Source: Phoronis australis (lineage: Eukaryota; Animalia; Phoronida). From it: a stretch of DNA of 64,000 nt. Under the pieces are notes generated by a model. The model ran no database searches and was not told where the DNA came from. It was given only the letters and a program-made list of their open reading frames with translations. Location: positions 560,233 through 624,232 of the forward strand of contig NMRA01000033.1 of the NCBI GenBank assembly GCA_002633005.1, read 5' to 3'. Shown here piece by piece: positions 14,893 through 40,459 of the stretch. The position numbers and the translations under genes are program-made. Each line of letters opens with the position of its first letter. The stretch's first letter is position 1.

Positions 14893-15066
14893 CTACACCT
14901 TGTTAGTCTTCTTGCAGCCTGTTGTGTACTGTCTGTGGAATACGGAGTGAAGGCCAGTGGTGTGATTGGGATTACTCCAATCAGCAATAGGAATGCCCTG
15001 AGCATACTGCTTCGAGGAAGTCTTGTTGAAGACTGGGAGTAGCTCATTGGCTTCATCACTCAGCAC
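14893..15066 (-). CDS. PDK: PDK last exon (C-terminal tail with DW motif)
   Basis: VLSDEANELLPVFNKTSSKQY...ADWSNP...TNKV, TAG at 14893-14895. Confidence 0.94.
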   Translation of the reverse strand: MLSDEANELLPVFNKTSSKQYAQGIPIADWSNPNHTTGLHSVFHRQYTTGCKKTNKV

Positions 15067-15641
15067 CTGTCCAGACAAAAACAGGTGTGTCCATTACATA
15101 ATTGACAATCTTACATTAATAACATGTGGAGATGGAGTTCCATTCTCTTTAGCACAGTTGTTCCTGGCTTGTAATGGGTCGAGATACAATAATCTTGTAT
15201 TTCTGTCCTTCTGGAGGGATTAAACTTTCAACGTTCAGTCTCAAGTTTGACCATGAATTAGTCAACATTGCCAACTGAACGGATGATACCGTCAAGATTT
15301 GATTTAATATTTTTGATTAACGACGTATTTCAATGTAACGCAACTGTAATTCAGGGAATCCTTTAAACACATTCTTAAGTACTACAGTCCTCTCTAAAAG
15401 TATTGGAATTTCCCATCATGAGGATTAGATGGAAGTCAAATCATGGTCAAAGTAGCCTTCCTTTATGACTGAGAGTGAAAGAGAATGAACAGGGAAGTTA
15501 GCAAAATGTACAAGACATTCCATAATAAGAATTTTGCAAAACTAAAGGGAATTCTTGGGAAGGAACAAAAATGAGCCGTCCTGTTGGGAAAATGGTTTGC
15601 TGTCCTGTGCTGTACATGAACATGCTAGAATAATGCTATTA

Positions 15642-16050
15642 AACAATAACATGTCCTGTGATAGATATTCTGACAATAACCTGTCCTGTGGTAGATATTG
15701 AAAAATAACATGTCCTGATAGATATTGAACAATAACATGTCCAGTGATAGATATTCTGACAATAACCTGTCCTGTGATAGATATTGAAAAATAACATGTC
15801 CTGATAGATATTGAACAATAACATGTCCAGTGATAGATTCTGAACAATAACATGTCCTGTGATAGATATTGAACAATAACATGTCCTGTGATAGATATTG
15901 AACAATAACCTGTCCTGTGATGGATATTGAAAAATAACATGTCCTGTGATGGATATTGAACAATAACATGTCCTGTGATAGATACTGAACAATAACATGT
16001 CCTGTGATAGATATTGAACAATAACATGTCCTGTGATAGATATTCTGACA
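15642..16050. repeat. ~29-bp minisatellite, ~14 copies (PDK last intron)
   Basis: Unit aacaataacatgtcctgtgatagatattg with length variants. Confidence 0.95.
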
Positions 16051-16071: not shown

Positions 16072-16185
16072 CTTTAGGTAAATATGAGCATCTGTGCCCA
16101 GTCCCTCCACAGATGACAACTGAAGGTCACCTTGAAAGTACTTAGCATAAAGTCGAGACAGAGGCAAGCCGTATCCATAGCCAGC
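16072..16185 (-). CDS. PDK: PDK exon 11 (G2/G3 boxes)
   Basis: [38 protein letters not shown]. Confidence 0.97.
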
Positions 16186-17187: not shown

Positions 17188-17301
17188 CAATGGGGCATGT
17201 GACGAAGATCCTTGGGGTGGTGGCTGAGGGGCCGTGGAATACATGTAGTTGAACATGAGATCAATCTGTGAGTGGGGTATACCTCCGCCGCGGTCGCTCA
17301 C
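17188..17301 (-). CDS. PDK: PDK exon 10 (G1 box)
   Basis: VSDRGGGIPHSQIDLMFNYMYSTAPQP...HAPL. Confidence 0.97.
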
Positions 17302-17964: not shown

Positions 17965-18066
17965 CTTTATTGTCATGTCTTCGACACCTTTACAAATGAC
18001 AACCTTAATTATGGGATATTCATCAGCATCAGCCCCATGATGCTCCACTACGGCACGCATGGAATT
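17965..18066 (-). CDS. PDK: PDK exon 9
   Basis: NSMRAVVEHHGADADEYPIIKVVICKGVEDMTIK. Confidence 0.96.
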
Positions 18067-18773: not shown

Positions 18774-18850
18774 CTTTAACAGCTCAAACAGCATGTGGTA
18801 CAGGTGAGATGGTACATACACCACTCTGACTGGGTTACCATGTTCAGTAG
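18774..18850 (-). CDS. PDK: PDK exon 8 (start of GHKL N box)
   Basis: TEHGNPVRVVYVPSHLYHMLFELLK. Confidence 0.96.
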
Positions 18851-19286: not shown

Positions 19287-19364
19287 GGTTGTAAGACTCG
19301 TATTCCACCTCGGGTGCCGTCATATAGTACTGTTCACATAGGAACCTGGCGTTGGCATAGGCAT
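19287..19364 (-). CDS. PDK: PDK exon 7
   Basis: AYANARFLCEQYYMTAPEVEYESYN. Confidence 0.95.
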
Positions 19365-20300: not shown

Positions 20301-20396
20301 CTTTGGCAACAGCCAGGACGTCACAGTGGGGGTCTATCGAGCCAATGTGTTGGTGGCGATCGTTAATGGGGACAGCATTCTCACCGAACAACAGGG
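20301..20396 (-). CDS. PDK: PDK exon 6
   Basis: LLFGENAVPINDRHQHIGSIDPHCDVLAVAK. Confidence 0.95.
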
Positions 20397-21534: not shown

Positions 21535-21655
21535 TATGCTGGTTAATCAACATGCGGATACTGATGCGACTCATGTAGAAACGGTCCAGGAAGTATTGGA
21601 TCTGATTCCCTGTGTTGTGGTCAATTCCATGACTGTCTCTTAGTTCCATGACACC
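21535..21655 (-). CDS. PDK: PDK exon 5
   Basis: [10 protein letters not shown]...[22 protein letters not shown]. Confidence 0.97.
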
Positions 21656-22777: not shown

Positions 22778-24447
22778 GGAGCATAATGACTATTGAGGAG
22801 ATATATTGTATTTATATAAACACTGTCAGCTATGCATTGTAAATGGCAGAATTAGTTCAGACAAGGACATTACCATAACTTTTCATGCACTGCAAAGGCA
22901 AGATGTAGTGCAGTAGACTGTGTTATGTAACGAATCTCTTGAATATGACTTTACTCAGCTGAAGGCTTAAGCAAGATTGTGACGACTTAAAAACAACTTT
23001 CAACATTGTAAACAAAAAGTGTGGAATTACGAAATATTGTCATGTGTGATCATTTAAAATTAGCTAAGTATTTATTAGCAGCTGGTGGCAGAAGACACGA
23101 TGTAAATACGTACTAAGTTTGTGCAATGTACTGTATAACTGTGTGTATGGACCGCAGGCCTTGTGTACAACAATGAAGTACATGTTGGTTTACAGTGTAA
23201 TAGTGGGTGAGTTCTCCCATTGATCTGAGGAGGTCCGTCTATCGTGATTAAAAGATGCTTAATCCTCATCTTGCTCCTTTAAGTTAAAGACCTAACATTG
23301 AAGGTCTATGAAAATAAGGCAAACTCCTAATGGCAAAGTGCTCCTGTTNAACCTTAAGCATGTTAACACATAAAATCAGTCCAGGGTCCCCTCTAGTTGA
23401 CTTGCAGACAAACTGTTCAGTAATTTCACAATATTTGTGAGAAAAACATCAACAATCTTCAAGCTATTTCTCCAACTGCTCATTCCTGGCGCCATTTTAG
23501 TTTGAAATTCAGAAATCTGGTTCAACTGAAATTTTCCACAGTTACAGCCAATCAGGGTGTTTGTTTATCTTAAATTCTCACTGAATTCTCACTCCAATTT
23601 TGGCAAGTCTAAATTCTCACTCAATTCTCACTCAGATTTTTTCTAAGTCTGAAATTCTCACTGATTCTCACCCTCAGAATTTTTCTAAGACCAAAATTCT
23701 CACTGGATTCTCACTGTTACATAACATTTTCTCACTCATTCTCACTGACTCCCCTGTTGTTCAATTCCCACTGGGTTCTCACTGGCATTTCTAACTATAA
23801 TTGGTGATTTAGTGAAAATCTAACTGGAATCTAACTGGAATCCAGTGAGATTCTCACTTTCTTTTTCGTAAGGGGGAGCATAATGACTATTGAGGAGATC
23901 TATTGTATTTATATAAACACTGTCAGATATGCATTGTAAATGGCAGAATTAGTTCAGACAAGGACATTACCATAACTTTTCATGCACTGCAAAGGCAAGA
24001 TGTGCAGTAGACTGTGTTATGTAACGAATCTCTTGAATATGACTTTACTCAGCTGAAGGCTTAAGCAAGATTGTGACGACTTAAGAACAACTTTCAACAT
24101 TGTAAGCAAAAAGTGTAGAATTACTTTACGAAATATTGTCATGTGTGATCATTTAAAATTAGCTAAGTATTTATTAGCAGCTGGTGGCAGAAGACACGAT
24201 GTAAATACGTACTAAGTTTGTGCAATGTACTGTATAACTGTGTGTATGGACAACAGGCCTTGTGTACAACAATGAAGTACATGTTGGTTTACAATGCAAT
24301 AGTGGGTGAGTTCTCCCATTGATCTGAGGAGGTCCGTCTATCGTGATTAAAAGATGCTTAATCCTCATCTTGCTCCTTTAAGTTAAAGACCTAACATTGA
24401 AGGTCTATGAAAATAAGGCAAACTCCTAATGGCAAAGTGCCCCTGTT
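22778..24447. repeat. ~570-bp near-identical direct duplication (22778-23348 and 23875-24447), probably two haplotypes joined at an N
   Basis: Same 64-aa spurious ORF twice; few SNPs/indels; N at 23349 exactly at end of copy 1. Confidence 0.8.
23350..23874. mobile_element. End of a non-autonomous DNA transposon with ATTCTCACT subterminal repeats
   Basis: More than ten ttctcact motifs, terminating in ttcgtaaggg. Confidence 0.55.
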
Positions 24448-24688: not shown

Positions 24689-24752
24689 CATGGCCATGGT
24701 TTCTACAACATTCACATGTCGATTGCGAATTCCTGCCAAAGTCTTACAGAAC
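24689..24752 (-). CDS. PDK: PDK exon 4
   Basis: FCKTLAGIRNRHVNVVETMAM; ttccag / gtacgt. Confidence 0.92.
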
Positions 24753-27216: not shown

Positions 27217-27288
27217 TCTTCCCGTGTTTCACTGCTGTCAACATGTGAACGCTCAAAGTCCAGGATTTCCTCAAAACTCTTCACATAC
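27217..27288 (-). CDS. PDK: PDK exon 3
   Basis: YVKSFEEILDFERSHVDSSETRE; tttcag / gtaagt, 72 nt. Confidence 0.92.
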
Positions 27289-29325
27289 CTGAAACAACAA
27301 AGGTAACAAAGTCGCTCAATGCCTGCAAATGTAGTTAACACCCACACCGTCAAATTACATGTTTTGCAAGCAGTTACTTAAGCAGTCTGCGTAGGAAACA
27401 AAGGCAAGAGGCAGAGGGGGAGTGTGCCTCACCTTCCTACTAAGAAGTTGAAAAATAAACCATACCATAGGTTAGGTAAATGGGTCTTCATTCACAGGTG
27501 TTGAACATTAACCTAAAACTTAACTATATTTCCTACATCAAATCGGGATCTCAACTTTTACTTAGAATTCTAGAAAAAGTACGAAAACAGGCTTTATTTC
27601 CTTACATTAATCCCAGGTATGTGATAATGCAATGAGATGACCCCTAGGTTTCCTAATAAGTTTGAAATGCATTGAGCCATCTTGGAAACCTTGAATGATA
27701 TTTGAAAAACTTGGACACTATCCTGTACTACAATTGTGCACACTTCCTGCACTACAATTGTATAGAACTGCAAGGTAAAAGAATATTTGATGAAAATAAA
27801 AAACTTGCCAGGAAATTTTTAAAAATAATTCCTTACAGTAAATAAAACATAGTTTCTGCAAGTTTCGTATGAATACGATTGGCCGTTTCTGAGATATGAT
27901 GTTCCAGACTTTGCCAAATATGGAACCTTTTCAACAGTTCTACATGACCTTAAGAAACATGTCATGGTATTGGTTAATGACACTTGATGCTTGAATTAAC
28001 CAAACTAACCAAACAGGTGTACCACCACAAGGCCCAATACCCTTATCATAAAGGATCTCCCAGGGTATTACAGATTGGACTTTAGACCAATGGCAAAATT
28101 CTAAACAAAGTGGGACATGTGATTAGAATAGATTGCATTTGATAAACAGAGTGCTAACTTCAAAACTGACAGATTGAAATTAAGGTCCTGCTCAAGTGAT
28201 TCTTGACTTGACGGTAATTTTTCAATCATTAAATGGGAATTTTTAGGCTTAGCTGATGAGAATTTTGCTTAATTCTTAAATATTTCTCATGGGGGAAGGG
28301 GCCCTACATTCGTCCGCGAAATCGAGGCATCGTGGGCCATTCTGCATACAAGTTTTTAATATGACATGTTGTTCATGTTAGCAGACAGTAAATCAAACAA
28401 GCTTATCAAGCTGTACTCAGTGTCATGTTTCTGGAGACATTTAGAATGTCAATAATTAAAATCTTCAAATTTTTGGAATTCAAAAATGCATTTTCAAATT
28501 TTGGTCTTAAATACTAGGGACGGGGGGAGGCTTGCTACGTACGATTTTATTCCCTCCAGAGAATAAAATCAGTTAATGTCTCTGCCAGATAGCTACTTCA
28601 TGTCCAGTGCAGAATGTTATGCCTGACTTGATCAAGCAACACCACAGGTCACAGTTGACTGCTATGTTCAGAGCAAAGAGCATGATGCAATCCTAATCTC
28701 AATTGAGGTGTTGCATAAAATCCCCTAACACCTAGTAAACATCATGTGACTTGCAAGGGCTAAACAGAGGTTAAAAACAACTGACCCCAACATGGCCTAG
28801 GGCTAAAGTTGATGGACATAACTTAGTCATGGGAAAACAGCAACTGTGAGTAAATAAATGCTGTCAAGGTCATACTTTAACCCAGCCAATCTGAAACGTG
28901 GTAAACAGACATGCCTCTAACACACCCCTCATTTCAGCCAATCACGTTACACATGCTTGACCTAGATAAACATGCATACAACAGTCAGGGCACGTAGTCA
29001 GATTTATTACCGTATGCCCCTGGTTTAAAAAAGATATGGAAGTGGCCTAATTTTGCAAGGGTCAAAGTACACTTTCAGAAATTATTAACATTCTATAATA
29101 ATAATAAGGCACTGTGAGCATAGCAAAACTGAAAAATCAACAATTACCTCGTAATTAAATCCACTTCATTTCAGACATCGTACTGCCAAAATTATTTTTT
29201 CATTTCAAAGAACATCTAACATTATTGTGAACTCTCACAATTCATTGGCAGGATTTTATCATGCAACTGCTGCTGCCACTAGTTCTGAATTTTAAATTCT
29301 ATTTGCCATCACTTATTTTACTCAC

Positions 29326-29467
29326 ATTTTCTGCACAATATCTACAGAGGGCATGGAAAGTAGATTGTCTGGCAATAGGCTAATCTCTTTCATAATGTTG
29401 GCAAGTCTCACAGGCAGCTCTTTACGAAGAAACGAGAATGAGGTCTTCTCACAACCTACTTCCCTTC
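29326..29467 (-). CDS. PDK: PDK exon 2
   Basis: [46 protein letters not shown]; canonical splice sites, 142 nt. Confidence 0.96.
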
Positions 29468-30049
29468 CTGTAACAGAAAACAGTTGCAATAGAAACAAAA
29501 TGAAAAATTAATTTCAAGTCATGCTTTTCGTCTGAGCATACCTGTATGTATAATTATGAGGAGATAACTCTGACTATTATCCAAATTAACATAACAAACG
29601 TCAACGTAAATGTTGACATCCTGCAGGCAGATAATTTCCTCCACTTTACGAAACCGCCCACTGTTCTAGTCACCTCAATTTCATAACCTTCTGCATTTTT
29701 GATATAACAAGTATTGCACACTCATACCTTATTTACCCTCATGTGGGGTTAATCCATGGGGATAAAAGAATCCATAGTGGATGTTTATGCAAGATTTGGC
29801 AACATTCCTTCAATATCCTGACTCACCTCATTAAAGCCAGAAACATTAGGTAAGACCACCAAATAATGAAAAGTTCAGTCAGGTAACAAAAGCTACCCAG
29901 GATCTATCAACTTATGGCTTTCTTAATCCACAGAGCATAATAATAGTTTCATTCATCTAGCTGTGAAGAAAGTCAGAACAATGAAAGCCCTGCTTCAGGA
30001 ATTCCATCAACAACAACCACCACACTGATACAACAGAGTAGGATCTCAC

Positions 30050-30275
30050 CAAATTGCATCATGTTTCCAAGTGAGACAGGAGAAGGTGTGAACGCCGCAT
30101 ACTCCTGGATTTTTCCAAGATGTTCAACCGACTTCTTCCCAACAACCTCACTTTTCCCATTTTGTTGTTTCACCCGAGCCGAAGCTACAGAGGCCAATAG
30201 TCGGTTCAAGTTAGCGTGATGAAGTTTAAGGCTGACATAGGTGCACTGCTTTGCTTTTGATAAGACACACGACAT
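30050..30275 (-). CDS. PDK: Pyruvate dehydrogenase kinase, alternative proximal first coding exon (1b)
   Basis: MSCVLSKAKQ...IQEYAAFTPSPVSLGNMMQF-G, donor gtgaga; same phase-1 junction and homologous motif as exon 1a. Confidence 0.78.
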
Positions 30276-30419
30276 GATGACAAAGTTCAGCTCAGCACCC
30301 TCCTCCAATGGAAAATTCCCAAATGATGGAAGAATATTGTCAACAACTCATAGTGATCAAAATATTCCCTGTTCAGACTCCAGTCCTTTAGTCCTGCCAC
30401 AAACTGCCACCAACATCTA

Positions 30420-30550
30420 ATAAGCCCTCAACACACACTGGCCATTTTATAATGCAATGTTGACAAAAGCAGATTTAACTAGTTTTCAGGTGATGGCCTA
30501 CTTTTCAAATGATGTCTCTGCTGATTGGCTAGTTTTGTTCCCACCCCTAA
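30420..30550 (-). promoter_or_regulatory. Candidate core promoter of PDK exon 1b
   Basis: Minus-strand TATAAA (30446-30451) followed by ATGGC, AGCCAATCAG CCAAT box (30521-30530), CACCC/GT box (30541-30547). Confidence 0.5.
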
Positions 30551-31814
30551 GAGATAATTTGGATTAGTCCACTACATACACAAAACAAGTGATATCCTAG
30601 GAAAATCAGATTGATAACCACACGAACAACTTGAAGTAAAGAAAGAAGTGCTTGCTTGCCATCTAGACAGCTAATTTATGAATAAATACACAGAAGTGTC
30701 AAGAATTTTTTAAAATATTTTTTATTAAGTTTTAAGCATTTTTATCATTTATTTGAATTGAAAGTAATTACAAAATTGCCTGAAATTTGTGACATGCGCT
30801 GAATCATGCCAGTAGCACTCCACAAAAAATCCACGGAATCAGAGTATATATAATTAATTTATCTGCAATTAAGTCAGGGGAGATAACTACACAATTTGCC
30901 AATAGCCTGTTGTAGAGAGTATATTATTTAATTGCCAACTGTTATTGGTGAAACTTTTTTTCACATCTGTTTATGAAATCATCTGGAAGCAAATACTCGA
31001 GGCCATAGATCATTTCTAAGTCAAGCTGTGGTGAAATTCATTTCGCCATCAGTAGGGTAAGCAGACAGGTTCACAAATTTCACCAAGAAAACTTGGGCAG
31101 TTCTCAAGTTATTGTAATTTTTCAGAAAAAAGCACTTCGAAATTTCAGGCCGCAGGAAGTAGCGACAGCTACATGTAGGAAACCATAATTCCCTGTTCTC
31201 CTAAAAGCAGAAAGTTCTTTACTTGCAAGTAGCTAAACAACATGGCATAGACATCAAACCATGTACCCACTGTAATATTTTACATGACGAAGATAAAAAA
31301 GATTAAGAAATTTACTATGGCTTTCTGTAAGGCAAAGGAAAATAACAAATCTGCAGACTTCAATATCAACACTCCTGAGAAATGGATGTAAGTCCTTACA
31401 CTCACTGATAGAATATCTTATCCACCAGCTCGGACTCAGTTTTAACTAAACACGATGCCAGCGTCGCATCGTTTAATCGTTCCGACACCCTTGAGTTCCT
31501 CGCTCCAGATCATGTTCATGCGAAATCGTTTACAAAAACTTTGGACATAAAATGTGTCATGTAGCAGTGAGCTATTGGCATCCTTAAACAGAATGGGAAA
31601 ATATCATCAGAGGCGTACTAACTAAGGCTTGTGACATGTCTGTGAACCTTCGCTACTTTACTCACCACCCCACCTACAGTGGAACTTCATGTCTTTGCCA
31701 AAACTAGTACGGAAGCACATAGGGCCACGTGTTTTTTGAAATCTGGTCACCAAAATAACATTGCCATGGCACAAACTTGAGTGAAACCTCTTAAGGACAT
31801 TTTGCTACCACACT

Positions 31815-32324
31815 AAGAGACCTACTTGTTTATGGTCCACAGTGTTTGCGCGCGAAACCTTCTTTTTGTAATGTTTATTACACTTTTTGTATTTTGTGCA
31901 ATCATTTCGTAACAAATTTGTTGTAGTTAAAGTAGTCTTCTGTTTTTTTCATCGTCACTCAGATTCCATTTTCTTTAAAAAATGAAGTAATTTTCTTCAT
32001 TGCACAGTGAAGCAGACGACGGAAACGGAGTCGTACTGCGCAGCGCCTCTGCCGGTCGCCTGGGATATCGCGAGAGAGCCTATACTCAGCCATAATTCCG
32101 TTACAATTGAGCCATGTTCCGAATTTGACACTTGAAAGTAGATCTGAGCCCCCCCCCAACATACTAAAACTGCACACATTTCAATATAGTTTCCGCCATA
32201 AAATGTTAATTACCGGGGTTAATAAATAAACTCAACATTTCCCTATGCTCTTGCTGTTTTATTTTTTTTTGCGGCAGCCAGGGGGGGGGGCGGGCCCCTG
32301 GGGCCCCCCCTAAATCCGCCTATG
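31815..32324 (-). mobile_element. Partial copy of CATAGGCGGA-terminated DNA element
   Basis: Reverse complement of 59720-60335; terminus taaatccgcctatg. Confidence 0.75.
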
Positions 32325-35300
32325 AGTTTTTGTGAGTTATTGGTTTATTGTATCTTTGTTTTATTGCCTTTTTGCAGCCAGTGCTTGTACCTTGTTTAGC
32401 TAATGATCAGCCAGTGTGTGAGTCAATGGTTATCTCTTAACTCATTCTCACGTCTTCAAGACTTTGGCAACCCACTTAGGCAATGGTAGTACATGGTCAT
32501 GACCAACTGGCCATCAGCTACTGTTGTTTTGATATAGCAACAGCTGTGACCTAGCTACTGCTCTCATACCACAGATTGTGAATTCCAGAGGTTCCAACTG
32601 TCCAGCAATGCTCTGGAGACAATATTTAGGCCTCATGCAGCTGGTACAGTTAGTGGTGTGTTTAACCTTTGACCTATCCATGGTGCCAATGATTGGTTAG
32701 AATAAGCATTTGTTATGACGATGAGCCTCATGTAGGGATCAAGAATGGTACAAATTTCTGGCACTGATCAATTGCCTGGAATTCCGAACACATCAAGAAA
32801 TATGTATACAAAAACACACAATCACAAACCATGGCAAGGATCATCCCAACTGCCTCCGGTAGCGATCTCTCCTTTTATGGCGAGATATTTTTCGAAGCTG
32901 ACAGGTCAACTCTTAGCAAATAAATATTAATGTTATACACCTTATGTTTTGATGTTTCTGAAAATGTCTTTTAATTCTTAGAGATACCGTATTTAGAGAA
33001 GGGCAGTTTGCGCTGTTTGTTCACACGACGAGTAATCCTGTCATGTGACTTAGCACTTCTAATATGATATCAAGTTGTCAGCTATAGTACCATGTGCACT
33101 AAGTCTTTAGATGTCTATGACAGCATATTGTAAGCACAGTGACTTACAGAAATTTGAAATCCACACATGAAAAATGTGAAGCCTTTACAGTTCTAGTAGA
33201 ACACGCTTTTTAACCCTTATTAGATTGTTAGAACATGACAGTGTATAACGAAGCTACCAATACCTAAACGTTAATCCTAACGAAATCTGTAGGTGGAAAA
33301 TTCATAAAAATCCTCACTTGTCCTGAACTAGTGATAATCTGCCATTTTACGGGTGTTTTGCTAGGAGTAATTAACACTGGTCAACGATATAAACATAACA
33401 ACCGCAATATCAAAACAAATAAAAGAAAAAATGCTTTACAGAAAGAATATTTGGACAACTTGTGAAAATATATAATTCAAGGGGAAAACTAAGATACCGG
33501 TGGCGTCCGGTGACTTTGTTAGGCGGCTGACAGCCAACAATGAACGACGACCAGTTCCAACTGCAGGCAAAATCACTTCAGAAAGAAAACTTGGTATGTT
33601 GCCGAATAGTATAATATAAGTAAGTTCAAAGTAAAAGAATTTTCATTGAGCCTGAGGCTACTAACGGAGCCCGGCGGCCTAGTGGCAGGGCCACGGACAT
33701 CACTGCTCTGTGGTGCAGGATGAACACATCAATTAGCTCCGCAGGCCTTGAAGAGCTGAAATTCGTGTGACCAAGAGATTAAAAAATTATTGTGTCATGC
33801 TACCAACACTACAATATTTTCCCATCGGCAACATTCAGCTCACACTCTTCCCCTTTGCGTTTTCAATCGCGGAATTTTTATTTTTAAAAAATGGAGGTAT
33901 CAATTACAAATTTTTATCACGTTTTAATATAATATGTTTTGTCTAATAATTGAAAAAGTCAATTAAGCAAGTGATTATATATTTTCCCAACGCCGGGCGA
34001 AGTGACACTGGCATGGAAGCTGCTGGGGAAACTTTGGTGGTTGTCGTGTCGAGCAGCAAAAATCAAAAATACGTGTGCATTATTGCAATTCAGGTGAGGA
34101 GTGCACTGTTTTGAGATAAAAATGTTTTTGTTTACTAAAACATCGCCGTGTGTGGATGCATTGCATCAAATTAGTATAAAAAGAACCAAACTGAGATTTA
34201 AAAACAGCTAAACAAAATAACACATTTACGCTCACGGTGATAACAATACATTTTCAAGGACAACATGGCTGTCATTCAGGAATCGTTCCTGAACTGATGG
34301 CCAAAGATTACCCAGGTCACGGAAAAAGTCGATTTTCTGATCACGGCCGAGGTACAAAATTATGCTCAAAAAGACTTTTAGTTTATTATAACAGAAAAGA
34401 GGTAAACATTATACCATGTTACATCTTACGTAATTCGGTATATATTTTCAAGTTTTTGAACTTGATTAACCCTTTGACATAACAGCAAGAAAAGTTATTT
34501 TCTGAAATCAATCTAAGCCCAGATCTAAACCTACAACCCCCTCTATTGTACGTTTGTTATTTTAAGCATATTTTACTGATAAAGTCACCAGCCTTGATTT
34601 CAGCGGTGATTAGTAACAAAATCACAAGATTTTGTTTGTTTCATATCGCTGGTCAAAGCTAATAAGTCTATCTAATCCAGCAATAACCTCAGTAAAACTG
34701 ATAACGCCCTTTAGGAGGAAGTCAGTTCAACTGATTCCTCATATTCTGAAGCATCCACTACAAAAGTATTTTAAAGCATTTATTTACTACAAAAGTTTAG
34801 TTGCGATAAAGCATTGATTCCACGGACTTCTTTATATATCATCTATTGCTTTTCGCGATAATTCACAAAATATGAATGCTGCAATTCGCTGCCAGCAGTA
34901 AAGTGAAGTTTGTAGACAAACAATAAGGATTTAATCCAAAGGCAGTAGCTCTAAGTCATACACACAACAAAAATCACTTATGATATCCAAGTAGCTGTTG
35001 CCCTAGCAACAACACTACAGAAAACTGGTGATTGTTTATCGGGAAACCAAAAAGCTTTACACTTTATTTTTCAAAGCCCTGATTTTTGGTATTCTTGATG
35101 ACTTTGTTATTTTAGAAAACCAAGAGCTAGGTATAATACTATCCATCACTACAGTGGTCCTACAGTCATCCTCCCCTCGTCGTGTGCTGCCTCCTCTTGG
35201 TGTGGCTAGTAGACATGATCTCCTCCCATAATCCTCTGTATGCAAAATACATTGACCTCGAGCACATCAAAAGTATTGGATGTTAATTATCAATTCCACA

Positions 35301-36714
35301 GACGAATGAAAGTACCAGAATGAAATCTTGACAGCCAGAGTATTTATTCGACTTGAAAGGGTTTAAAGACATCGACAGCCTTTGAAGACGTGTACCACTA
35401 AGCTCAAACATTATTTTGGAGAGAACTGAGGTTGGAAAATTAGCCTGGGTGAAAGTAATTACGACAAATGTTTTCTGCGTTACATGGCATACTAGGAGGT
35501 ACTATCACCTATTGTGTTCCCTGACTTTGAAAACCAGTTCCACCCAGCCAAATCCATGCCACCTAAAATGCTTGGCAGTGACACCTAATTGTGATTAATA
35601 AAATTCAGCTGCAGTGACCCCAAGGAACCTGAAGTACAAAACTGTATCTATATACAGCTTTGGAACCATTTGGATAAAAAGGTCTAGCAAAATGAAACCC
35701 TGCAGACAGTCAATTATGAATTTAAAGCACATTTAATTAGGTTATTGGAACGAAAAGAATAACGTTCATCCATTATATTATACTGCTGTAGTTAAATTTG
35801 TGAAGCGATCATATGCTTCAACTTTGAGCACCATGAAATTGAGCATTATCTGTTGGTCAATTTCTGTTTTTCGCTTTCAGAAACGTTACGTTGAAAAATC
35901 TTCATGGACATGTTCAAGTTATAATGACTAAATTGTATCCAGAGTCATGGTATGTGGTAATTATAACTCCATGTGCATGCATGTTTCATTCAACTTTATT
36001 TGCTGCATTTTGAAATGAGTAACTTGTTATGGGGATGTACTATCGCCCTTGTATGCCTGCGGCATTCAGTGTGATGTAATTACCTATCTGAAACATTGCG
36101 TTGAAAAAATATTCAAAGCTGGTCCTCAGAAATGTGTCCTTTACCGGCCACTTGTGTTGCTTACTCAAAGGAACCTTGAAAACTTATCAAAGGCAAACAA
36201 AAGTAACTGATGTTAGCCACACTGAACAGGGTCGACTGCTGGCCAGGGTCGCCGCCGGCTCTGCACAGTACCCCCATGGCCCCTGAAGATCCGGCCCTGA
36301 GTATCTGAGAAAAATTCTATGTCCCAAAAATGTGTCCCCACCATGAATGTGTCACTTACCAGCCATTTGTCACTTTCTGAAACGTTGCATTGAAAATTTT
36401 TCGAAGTCCCTTGAAATGTGCCGTTTATTGGCCATTTGTATCACTTTTTGAAAGGTACAACACGCACAGCGAAGTCAATTTTAGTCATGGAGCAGACGGC
36501 AGGTCTTGATAGTCCGCTGACCTGGCTCTGCTGGGCGAATTGTCGCAGTCCTCATGCCTGTCCCACATCGACCGTCCTGTTCACCAGTGGCTGACATCCG
36601 GGGGAGCAGTTGCAATGCTGAAGTTCCACTATAGACCCTATTCATGCCGACAGGAGGCGCGTTCCAAAACGAGGCTCGCTACTATAGCTCTGGTGGCTTA
36701 TCCGCGGAGTTATA

Positions 36715-36870
36715 CTACGCGTTGCTCGAACAGCTAGGAAAAATACGGACACTCTGTTTTACAATCCCTAAGGACATTGGGATTCGGAAGCGTTGGGTCC
36801 TTGCCATACGCTGCGACGAAGGAAAATATGTCCGTGTAAAATTTATAACTGTTTTCGAATCATAATTTGT
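36715..36870 (+). pseudogene. Decayed THAP-domain fragment (transposon remnant)
   Basis: CSNS / FTIPKDIGIRKRWVLAIR / SNH across frameshifts resembles the THAP C..C..FP.D..R..W..CS.HF pattern. Confidence 0.55.
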
Positions 36871-37166
36871 CGCATCTCGGACTGGATGCCGCCATAGCAA
36901 GGACCGGAGAATCTTCGGCCAGCCAGGCTGTGTTTTCATGACTATGGGTTGAAGCGCGATGCATTTTTCTTTACAAAAAGGACAGGGCCCTCAATCCCTC
37001 AAATTTGGGGCCAAACATCGGCCCCATTCCCCTCTCAAAAATATTGAAAAATCACGCGAAATTCCCGGCCACGAGGCCTAAAAATCCCCTTTGTGATTGA
37101 AAATTTCTCTCCAACGGTTCAAATCACCTGTGACCACAGAGGTGACAATTTGAAAAAGTACAAAAT

Positions 37167-37483
37167 CATAGGCGGATTTAGGGGGGGAGCGGCCCGACCC
37201 CCCCTTGACTGCCGCAAGCAAAATAAACCAGCAAAAGGTGAAGAGGGAGGAAACTTGTACTGAGTTCGAGCTAGGACCGGTAGCGGATGAGGGGGGGAAA
37301 GCACGTTCCGTTTTATTTTTTTTTAGTCCAACGACAGATTTCCTGAGCAGAAGGTAAACATCCTCGGCGCCCGCAACTTCCGGGCCGCCTGCATGCATAC
37401 AATCGCGCTTTGCCCGCTTCTCCGAGGATGTCGCCCCCGCCCCCCTCACTATAGGCCTATATGGTATCCTAGATCAGCCACTG
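37167..37483 (+). mobile_element. MITE with 5-bp TSD, same termini as 59709-60684
   Basis: CATAGGCGGATTTAG ... CTAGATCAGCCACTG, TSD AAAAT. Confidence 0.8.
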
Positions 37484-37689
37484 AAAATGGTACTTGAGAC
37501 AGAGCTATAAGAGCTTGCAAAAGGGCGGGGTGCTATTGATGGTGATCGGGAGGACAGTAGAGTTTTCACTGACCCGTCACTCGGCGAAACGTTCCCCTCT
37601 CAGTCGGAAGGCCGCACACACACGGTGAGGCACCTTTCCCCTCGGATATGAATGAGGCCTCTGAAGAAACGTGATATCTATGCTTGTTC

Positions 37690-37854
37690 CAGGGGGGATC
37701 CAGGACTTTGAGTTGGGAGAGGGGGAAGGCAGAGTATTAGCCAGGATTTTGCCCGTCAGAAATTCGCGCTCCTGAACTGCCAAATGGAATCTGGGAGAAT
37801 TTTAGGAGGGGGGCTGGGGCATAGCCCCTTGGCTCCCCTCTAAATCTGCCACTG
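37690..37854 (+). mobile_element. Short MITE with 5-bp TSD
   Basis: CAGGGGGGATCCAG ... TAAATCTGCCACTG, TSD TGTTC. Confidence 0.75.
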
Positions 37855-38933
37855 TGTTCTGTCCAGTTAACTGAAATTGAGCTCTAAAACGAGGTTATGC
37901 TTTGGACCAAAGAATTAGGTGTTTCAATTTTAAAATTCAACTTGGTCGAGACTGATATTTGAAAAATATAACACATGAAATAGACGTAATTATTAAAACC
38001 AAGAAAGCAGAATTGATGGTCATATAATTTTTTATTTTCAATTGCGAGCCTTGTTTTTTATCGTAATCAAAATATATATTTAATAACATCAAGTATTATT
38101 TCAGATCAATAACAAATCAACTGTTAGTCCCGGTAGTGCCTACCTCACCAGGACCTAGGCTGTGCTTGAAGCTAATAGGCCTACTCTTGATCAACAAGCA
38201 TTTTTATCAAGAATTTATTAGAAGAAACGTAACCCTGCATTCAGCATGATACCTAATCCGCAACACTACGATTGCCGCAATTTGGTCATGTTTACTTTTC
38301 ATGTTTCGAACCTAGTTTTCCGGAAAAAAACCTATATCCTTTCGTCAGACAACTCTTTGGTGCATTGACTTGTTCTTTAACTGTATTTTTCTACATCTCT
38401 GTGGTTAATTTATTGACACATTTTTTAAGATTTAATATTCAGGTTGGACTCCAAAGACCGGCCATTTAACTCACGCAATGTAAATTTGCGCTTTGTTTAT
38501 CGCAGTGAGCCTCGCTTTGGATTTTAATGTCCGCCGCGTGAATAGAGTCTATAGTCATGTCCCTGGATGTGTATCTGAAGTCCCACGATCCACATATGGC
38601 CAGATCCGCCGCTCTGCCTCCGTACTAGCAACAGACGGAAAGCGCAGGGTCACAATGCAGTCCAGTTACCCCCATGTTGGCAAAGGACCGATTGGAGGTT
38701 TGTGCACCCATTGTTCCGCCGTCGGAAAGTGCTAATGCAGGTGATCAGGTACTGCCCAACGATCAGGAAGTTTCAATGGCAAGTTTCCCTCATGACACAT
38801 TTCAAAATGTGAGTTTTCACTTTACCCTATATTGTGATATATATCAAAGGGACGGTTGTTGGACAACGCAGTTGGTGGCTTTGGTTTGGTATAGACAGTG
38901 CCACCGCCTTAACTTAGCAGTATACTGTATGCA

Positions 38934-39197
38934 CCAGAAGATATGACATCATATCTCCTGACAAGCACAGTGCAAAAATGGCCAGTTGCCGATTTGGGCA
39001 ACTGAGCAAAGGACCGCTCCAAAAAAAAGTTTGATTAAGGGAGTATTTGTGCGACTTGGAAGGAACTAATGACATTGACGGTTTCCTAAGGTGTCCCTCT
39101 ATGTGCAACATGTAGTTGTAGCAGCATGACTTTGATGGTTTAATCAGTGTGAGGCATCATTCGCCAAAAAGCTTCAGGCGTATGACTGAAGGGCCTT
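38934..39197 (+). repeat. Dispersed repeat; inverted copy at 40587-40742 plus 44494-44592, third copy ~62950-63330
   Basis: Direct reading of reverse-complement matches. Confidence 0.75.
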
Positions 39198-39685
39198 TGG
39201 GAGCATCACTGCAACGTAGAGGCGGTGTCTATGGTTAAGTATAGATACACCTGGGCACACATTCGACACTGTCGTATGTGGTAAAAATCCAATAGACAGA
39301 TCCCTCTTGAAAATCGCTGCGGGATACAGTTATTCAGTGAAAAGTGGTTCCTGCAGCAGCCATTTTGAAGAGGGACCTGTCTATTAAACTACTTGACTTT
39401 TACCAATAATGTATGCCAGAAAGGATATTCTACGTATTTGGCTTGGACCAAAATAACATCTGCCAAATATACATAACTGATTCATGTACGGAAAGAGTGA
39501 TTTTCCTACATGTCGCTTCAATAAAATTATGTTCCTGCTTTTGATTTTTTAAGCACTGACCCAATTTAAAACCAGACGGCGCTACATGGTGACATAGTGT
39601 GTGGCGTGGGATATGTTTTCATTATGCCATGACACATCTTGGAGTTCTTAATCTAGGTATAATATTCGGACAAAACATAACTTAC

Positions 39686-39806
39686 CAAAATCCAAAAACT
39701 GTTTTATTGACAACGGGGATGGATAAAAATTCGAGTATTTATCCAACATCTTCTTAGTCGTTGTCGAGGTAAGTACCTTCTGCATACACACAATTGAAAT
39801 TCTCAT
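39686..39806 (-). CDS. PDK: Pyruvate dehydrogenase kinase, distal first coding exon (1a)
   Basis: MRISIVCMQKVLTSTTTKKMLDKYSNFYPSPLSIKQFLDF-G, donor gtaagt; PSPLSIKQFLDFG is the canonical PDK motif. Confidence 0.92.
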
Positions 39807-40273
39807 CCTGATTTTATAACAGTAGCGCAGCAAGTAAACGTATTTTCAGAAGTAGAAGTCCGTAAGCATGAGTAGTTACTGCGACCGTCACGATGATGAT
39901 GAAAGAGCGTGAATGAATGACATACCAAGAACAACAAACAAACCAAGCACGGCTGAAAAGCGACCTCTTTTGACAGACAAAAATAGTCTCCTTCTTAACA
40001 ATCATCCACTTTCTCTCCACCGTGGATAAAGTAATATGAATAATAAAATATCAGGTACAAAATAAGTGTGTTTACTTGGGCTTGATGTAATATGTAAAAC
40101 GCTCGCAAATTGTATGTAAAAATAGCCTCCAACCTCATCATGTGCGCATGCGTATTGCGCAGCCGGTAAAAGACGGAGAGGCATGAGTGAAGAGTTTTTA
40201 GGCAGGACTTTAAGCATTTTTGTTAATTATATGCGTTCGTCATTGTTATACTGACTGTCTTTATTTAGGAATC
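39807..40273. promoter_or_regulatory. Head-to-head (bidirectional) promoter region PDK/CDV3 with NRF1-like site
   Basis: Divergent ATGs about 470 bp apart; TGCGCATGCGTA at 40143-40154 matches the NRF1 palindrome. Confidence 0.7.
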
Positions 40274-40459
40274 ATGGCGGAAAGTAACGATTTGGACGAT
40301 TTCTTTGCCAAAAAAGACAAGAGCAAAAAGAAAAATAGGTCTAAATTCACAGCAAATGACTTGCTGGCTGAACAAGGAAAGGACCCCAAAAAAGAGAAGA
40401 AGAAGAAATCTAAAGATAAAGAGAAACCGCAGTCTGCTGGTAACGATACCACGCAACAG
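40274..40459 (+). CDS. CDV3: CDV3 homolog, first coding exon
   Basis: MAESNDLDDFFAKKDKSKKK (CDV3 N-terminal LDDFFAKKDK motif); donor gtataa. Confidence 0.9.

Follow-up and report, generated by a model that had tools for sequence, protein, structure and literature searches.

Pyruvate dehydrogenase kinase (PDK) sets whether pyruvate is oxidized, and the differences between its isozymes in docking to the L2 domain of E2 have been studied as a property of four mammalian genes, PDK1 to PDK4, which are separate and diverge from end to end. Duplicated exons and alternative first exons are likewise already known. Alternative exons that arose by tandem exon duplication were reportedly described by Kondrashov and Koonin in 2001 and by Letunic et al. 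in 2002, and UGT1A and the protocadherins have variable first exons. Among invertebrates, Drosophila Pdk is one gene with differentially used isoforms, its transcripts being sex-biased and its C-terminal regions alternative (as described in part of PMC13232068), and the available portion of a paper on hypoxia in Aplysia handles PDK as one gene. Here we analyze a 64,000-nucleotide (nt) stretch of Phoronis australis DNA (contig NMRA01000033.1, positions 560,233 to 624,232; hereafter the window) in which a single PDK gene has two homologous first exons, 1a and 1b, so that the N-terminus alone is swapped. This arrangement is like tandem exon duplication systems, UGT1A and the protocadherins in that homologous exons are used singly, a promoter-chosen first exon being joined to common exons. 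It is unlike UGT1A and the protocadherins in having two copies only, with a short core of 21 amino acids (aa) that belongs to a regulatory docking site and not to a substrate domain, and unlike Drosophila Pdk in that the alternatives are duplicated first exons rather than C-terminal ones. A full-text literature search, whose coverage falls short of most subscription papers, found no description of duplicated PDK first exons; RefSeq and GenBank already list isoform pairs of this kind, as models without names.

The gene lies on the minus strand. The coding part of exon 1a, the canonical form or type A, occupies 39686..39806 (121 nt, 40 codons plus 1 base), and that of exon 1b, type B, occupies 30050..30275 (226 nt, 75 codons plus 1 base). 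They end in the phase-1 donors GTAAGT and GTGAGA, respectively, and both join exon 2 in frame after the AG at 29467. A sequence-only reading of the window had predicted that each exon has an ATG, an open frame and a phase-1 GT donor at the same codon, feeding the same exon 2, and its coordinates, translations and end motifs are all confirmed. We mapped three raw RNA runs (X2, X3 and X4; 18–19% of each) together with a contig set, X1, presumed to be RNA. The two splices implied by the prediction, 39686 to 29467 and 30050 to 29467, are both found. The joint from exon 1a to exon 2 is crossed by 34 reads (6, 4 and 24 in X2, X3 and X4) and that from exon 1b by 20 (3, 7 and 10), the latter also appearing in an X1 contig, so that exon 1b accounts for 20 of the 54 first-exon junction reads. 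For comparison, the exon 2 to exon 3 joint has 25, 20 and 17 reads in the same runs; all three joints are GT-AG and on the expected strand. We have next to no doubt that both first-exon isoforms are real and expressed.

To expose weaker joints, positions 29250–31450 were mapped a second time. This yielded a single joint, with read depth across exon 1b gone by about 30450; within the same interval no read or joint entered exon 1b from upstream, and only adapter was present among the upstream loose ends. Because no upstream joint exists and depth fades by about 30450, exon 1b is a first exon, and an internal cassette exon, which would show a joint or a loose end from upstream, is ruled out. Loose read ends at the exon 2 acceptor match the end of exon 1a at 99–100%, which leaves no sign of a third first exon.

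The last 21 aa of exons 1a and 1b are identical at 7 of 21 positions, an alignment score reached by none of 20,000 shuffles. When a profile built from other species was run against the 38,437 stop-free 21-mers of the window, exon 1a ranked first (66.8) and exon 1b second (46.3), while the third-best 21-mer scored 23.4. Since this next score is half that of exon 1b, the PDK exon 1 core is present exactly twice in the window, and a third copy of exon 1 is ruled out by the same window-wide scan. The shuffle test, the profile ranks and the RNA junctions thus agree with the proposal that these are two homologous alternative first exons. Neither first exon alone has a Pfam match, none of 42 candidates retrieved with exon 1b alone was a true relative, a further exon 1b search returned two matches outside the PDK core that we take as chance, and exon 1b against the PDB gave a single weak match to a ribosomal protein.

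The same two N-termini occur in other animals. From 240 matches listed, 28 clusters were looked up, and 12 of these carry two different N-termini on one body; the Haliotis pair is split over separate clusters, and the other 15 have one type or none. Among the clusters looked up, A/B pairs are present in 11 of 13 named mollusc groups (the names Gigantopelta, Haliotis, Ruditapes and chiton being our own presumed assignments) and in three amphioxus, Branchiostoma belcheri, B. floridae and B. lanceolatum. The mollusc groups without a pair are Argonauta, with one A model, and Bradybaena, with B-like models only; the B partner of the cuttlefish is a Logan protein. Pair members are identical over their last 366–387 residues and diverge at the FG that closes exon 1, and the Patella caerulea pair (KAK6183451/KAK6183450) has a single locus tag. 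The pairs of Octopus (XP_029646766/XP_029646767), P. caerulea and B. lanceolatum (CAH1241373/CAH1241374) are like the window gene in their homologous N-termini, common FG end, identical body and type residues. They differ from it in being database models named "isoform X1/X2", known from proteins and not from genomic layout, and the B exon that has diverged furthest is exon 1b of the window (Val27, Gly30, Asn31, Met32), which comes from a non-mollusc lophotrochozoan. The sequence-only reading had spoken of one invertebrate gene; the presence of both types in molluscs and amphioxus shows that the exon pair is no peculiarity of a single invertebrate.

Two side observations concern these protein models. 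In several species the B form has 1–4 extra residues directly after the exon 1 FG (P0029, P0126, P0297, P0146, P0149), which suggests that the choice of first exon is coupled to displaced splice sites or to a micro-exon. In the land snail Bradybaena, PDK models lie on two contigs and all of their N-termini are B-like (P0157, P0158, P0314); gene and exon duplication may coexist there, or type A may be lost or unannotated.

Comparison of 13 A/B pairs, labeled A or B by eye and numbered as in PDK3, defines what is conserved in the swap. Position 20 is Ser in 13/13 A exons and 0/13 B exons; position 29 is Ile or Met in every A exon and Leu in every B exon; position 32 is Phe in 12/13 A exons and Leu or Met in 10/13 B exons; position 35 is Phe throughout. 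In a wider set of cores, Leu29 is found in 21/21 B-like against 5/74 A-like sequences, and Ala20 in 17/21 against 2/74. Exon 1b, with Ala20, Leu29 and Met32, matches the definition of mollusc type B (non-Ser20, Leu29, Leu/Met32). The features stressed at first sight, namely the Leu-to-Val change, the GNMMQ segment and the 75-aa N-terminus, turn out to be lineage-specific, the conserved swap being at positions 20, 29 and mostly 32. Val27 occurs in two of the 13 B exons and in one A exon, and the length of B leaders varies between 33 and 76 aa in other species, so the Leu-to-Val change and the long leader are local features; the 13-pair comparison rules out both as the conserved change.

These residues adjoin a known docking site. 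According to part of PMC4551558, the N-terminal hydrophobic channel of PDK3 consists of Leu27, Gln31, Phe32, Phe35, Ser45 and Phe48. Four of the six (27, 31, 32 and 35) are supplied by exon 1 and the other two by exon 2, in line with the earlier suggestion that exon 1 feeds the lipoyl pocket. We take this channel to be the lipoyl pocket of the structure papers. At its four exon 1 positions, the residues of PDK3 are all retained in form A and read Val, Asn, Met and Phe in form B. The inhibitor AZD7545 sits in the lipoyl-binding pocket of the N-terminal domain, as stated in a passage of PMC13151138. Among solved PDK chains, those of PDK4 have Leu32 (SMKQLLDFG) and those of PDK1–3 have Phe32, so that an aliphatic residue replaces Phe32 both in exon 1b (Met) and in PDK4 (Leu). 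In the excerpts available, PDK4 is described as the weakest L2 binder (PMC4813202), with a high basal activity unaltered by L2 and insensitivity to AZD7545 (PMC5322387). PDK4 and most B exons are alike in Leu32, and they have the PDK family and the exon 1 core in common, but PDK4 is not a type-B exon, because it has Met29 and Ser20. A predicted structure of the Lineus type-A protein was poor (mean predicted local distance difference test score 50.6) and was not used.

We therefore favor, at roughly even confidence, a two-promoter PDK gene in which exon 1b is the likely orthologue of the mollusc B exon and would make a kinase with weaker L2 binding or response, as in human PDK4. An old tandem duplication of exon 1 would have produced two first exons spliced onto a common exon 2. 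Promoter choice would then exchange the pocket-lining N-terminal helix (Ile/Met29 to Leu, Phe32 to Leu/Met, Phe35 unchanged) and leave the catalytic domain and C-terminal tail as they are. The C-terminal tails of mammalian PDKs also contact L2. Altered L2 docking or regulation in form B is a proposition that we hold to be evenly poised, judging from the pocket residues. Form A would be tethered to E2, with NADH and acetyl-CoA adjusting its activity via the lipoyl group, and form B would be less bound to lipoyl feedback and governed chiefly by a promoter of its own; to this division into a feedback-tuned and a promoter-set form we give the same middling weight. Both forms are predicted to enter mitochondria.

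Several observations weigh against this reading. Three of the 13 B exons retain Phe32, Leu32 occurs in 7/74 A-like cores, and the parallel between form B and PDK4 rests on one residue; in the excerpts seen, with the primary structure papers outside the reading, we found no passage tying Leu32 causally to PDK4 behavior. The ratio of 1a to 1b junctions shows no significant difference across X2–X4 (p 0.12; 0.43 by distinct starts). No B form turned up for the closest relatives compared (Lineus, Tubulanus and Owenia). The tree of the exon 1 core has only 21 columns and long B branches, and it is compatible with exons 1a and 1b of the window as sisters (p-AU, from the approximately unbiased test, 0.22).

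The retention of Phe32 in three B exons fits an account in which the duplicate survived only to provide a further promoter and a separate targeting peptide, the mature kinases being alike and the type-B residues harmless old substitutions. In the same direction, leader length varies freely (33–76 aa), and both forms have Phe35, Pro24 and the pocket residues encoded by exon 2. In X1, moreover, only the 1b path is seen (contig depth 119.9 versus 0 at 1a), which hints at biased first-exon use or promoter switching, though contigs cannot show absence. Against it stands the near-exclusive association of Leu29 and Ala20 with B-like cores: conservation of this kind, specific to type and adjoining the pocket, fits a distinct protein role. 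We consider the second-promoter account rather unlikely.

The leaders also bear on whether the role of exon 1b is different targeting, in the form of slower import, other processing or a site outside the mitochondrial matrix. The 1b leader is 35 aa longer than that of 1a and more basic (10 versus 4 Lys/Arg). Both leaders are, however, basic and acid-poor, the first acidic residue of 1b being at position 43, as expected for a presequence, and this fits mitochondrial import of both forms, as far as composition can tell, rather than the different import that had been suggested. Leader length is not the conserved feature, since the two leaders are equally short in Mytilus, Littorina and amphioxus, and a targeting role seems highly unlikely.

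For 10 of 11 mollusc groups, the B exon is a closer match to exon 1b than the A exon is (2 of 2048 sign flips), and amphioxus B is nearer to mollusc B in 7 of 11 only (325 of 2048). The core tree splits the 13 A from the 13 B exons (support 74/93, unstarred), with exon 1b on the longest branch of the B class (0.89), and a clade of amphioxus A plus B is rejected (p-AU 0.014). An alternative is that this lineage, the molluscs and amphioxus each duplicated exon 1 on their own and that the second copies converged on similar residues. The compatibility of a 1a plus 1b clade in the window and the weak affinity of amphioxus B would suit such convergence, as would the failure to find any B form in the nemertean, annelid, priapulid, hemichordate, arthropod and vertebrate proteins compared, most of which are single-model clusters. 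A change from Phe to Leu at position 32 can also recur: the two shark PDK4s compared keep Phe32, so the Leu of mammalian PDK4 would be a separate event. Convergence is harder to reconcile with the joint presence of mollusc-B Ala20 and Leu29 in exon 1b and with the rejected amphioxus clade, and the relatives without a B form are mostly single-model annotations; we regard it as distinctly improbable. Since the A/B labels were set by eye, the taxa are related and the B branches are long, the numbers favor one origin without proving it. On these comparisons, we are fairly confident that exon 1b is an orthologue of the mollusc B exon, with a weaker link to amphioxus, and equally so that the tandem duplication is at least as old as the split between molluscs and this lineage. 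An origin of the pair before the protostome-deuterostome split is possible, at slightly less than an even chance.

Could exon 1b be a transcribed but decaying copy, or an RNA barely translated owing to upstream open reading frames (ORFs)? Its branch length would suit decay, and its 5′ untranslated region (30276..30449), which also has a polymorphic 3-nt insertion, holds three short upstream ORFs with ATGs at 30445, 30416 and 30351. Exon 1a, however, has two upstream ATGs as well, and exon 1b supplies 20 of the 54 first-exon junction reads. Nine coding variants were found in exon 1b, six silent and three replacing a residue; none of the replacements falls in the core, and there is no frameshift or stop. 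The ratio of replacement to silent polymorphism (pN/pS), calculated from variants in RNA reads only and uncorrected for transition bias, is 0.15 (binomial p 0.006). The variants support constraint on exon 1b, and decay or non-translation is hardly credible. The ATG at 30416 is itself polymorphic, being lost through a variant in X1, X2 and X4.

Read depth fades away near 30450 for exon 1b and before 39976 for exon 1a. The sequence-only reading had assigned exon 1b TATA, CCAAT and CACCC motifs of its own. Such words do exist in 30445..30546 on the minus strand (at 30451, 30528 and 30546) as putative elements, but 21 of 100 shuffles also yield a CCAAT-CACC-TATAAA arrangement. The X1 contig extends as far as 30449, a position within the TATA word, before giving way to adapter, and the reading as a TATA box is not supported. 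No HRE (hypoxia response element) or FOXO word lies within 500 nt upstream of exon 1b. Opposite exon 1a, a head-to-head gene (40166–40459, plus strand) has opposite-strand reads from about 40166 and an ORF from 40274; its start presumably resembles CDV3, for which Pfam gave no confirming match. A word resembling what we take to be the NRF1 consensus lies near exon 1a at about 40143–40153. Given the head-to-head gene and this word, exon 1a may be driven by a bidirectional promoter common to both genes. Between 1a and 1b, the intronic stretches 31540–32430 and 36400–38650 are repeat-derived, with many reads on both strands and many differences, and are likely dispersed mobile elements.

The shared part of the gene was located by tblastn with PDK proteins of other species and inspection of splice ends. 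Exon 2 (29326..29467, 142 nt) has RNA joints, carries the counterparts of PDK3 Ser45 and Phe48 and matches the Pfam family BCDHK_Adom3 (E 5.8e-10; 39.7 bits against a cut-off of 24), and exon 3 (27217..27288) is joined to it in RNA reads. The remaining exons, all on the minus strand, are predicted from tblastn matches: exon 4 (24689..24752, with AG/GT ends) and, from in-frame reading, exons 5 (21535..21655), 6 (20301..20396), 7 (19287..19364), 8 (18774..18850), 9 (17965..18066), 10 (17188..17301) and 11 (16072..16185), followed by the last coding exon (14893..15066), with the stop at 14893. The frame stays open through 11 shared exons, giving 424 aa from exon 1a and 459 aa from exon 1b, and includes a GHKL ATP-binding domain with what we take to be the N-box Asn in exon 9, the G1 box in exon 10 and the G2 box in exon 11. 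In a comparison set without BCKDK, the product is 61–67% identical to PDKs (best 15 matches) and nests among PDKs in a tree of the shared body (28 rows, LG+G4), where it groups with Owenia (87/83) and nemerteans (89/89) outside the molluscs, on unstarred branches. The C-terminal tail (14893–15066) has an HTTGLH motif in common with Lineus PDK that is absent from the mollusc alignment rows. The intron between exons 4 and 5 contains a 576-nt direct repeat of 97% identity (22778–23348 and 23875–24447) adjoining a single N at 23349; the repeat may be an artefact of assembly or of haplotypes. The last PDK intron contains a minisatellite (15637–16044; 29-nt unit, about 14 copies).

A wider scenario, which we offer as doubtful, is that the protostome-deuterostome ancestor, through a duplicated first exon, obtained two PDK isozymes from one gene, one tethered and feedback-sensitive and the other PDK4-like. 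Molluscs, this lineage and amphioxus would have kept both; vertebrates would have lost exon B, with mammalian PDK4 re-creating the Phe32-to-Leu change after gene duplication. A promoter switch to B would then be a means of shutting down pyruvate oxidation in anoxia- or fasting-tolerant invertebrates. The A/B pairs are natural swaps of the N-terminal pocket segment alone on an identical body, and hence a clean test of the residues behind the L2 independence of PDK4 and insensitivity to AZD7545-class inhibitors. Gene-level expression studies are unable to separate forms A and B, and a recount by first exon is feasible with the mollusc and amphioxus RNA-seq already available. If the switch is conserved, many invertebrates that have been treated as having one PDK would have two regulatory forms.

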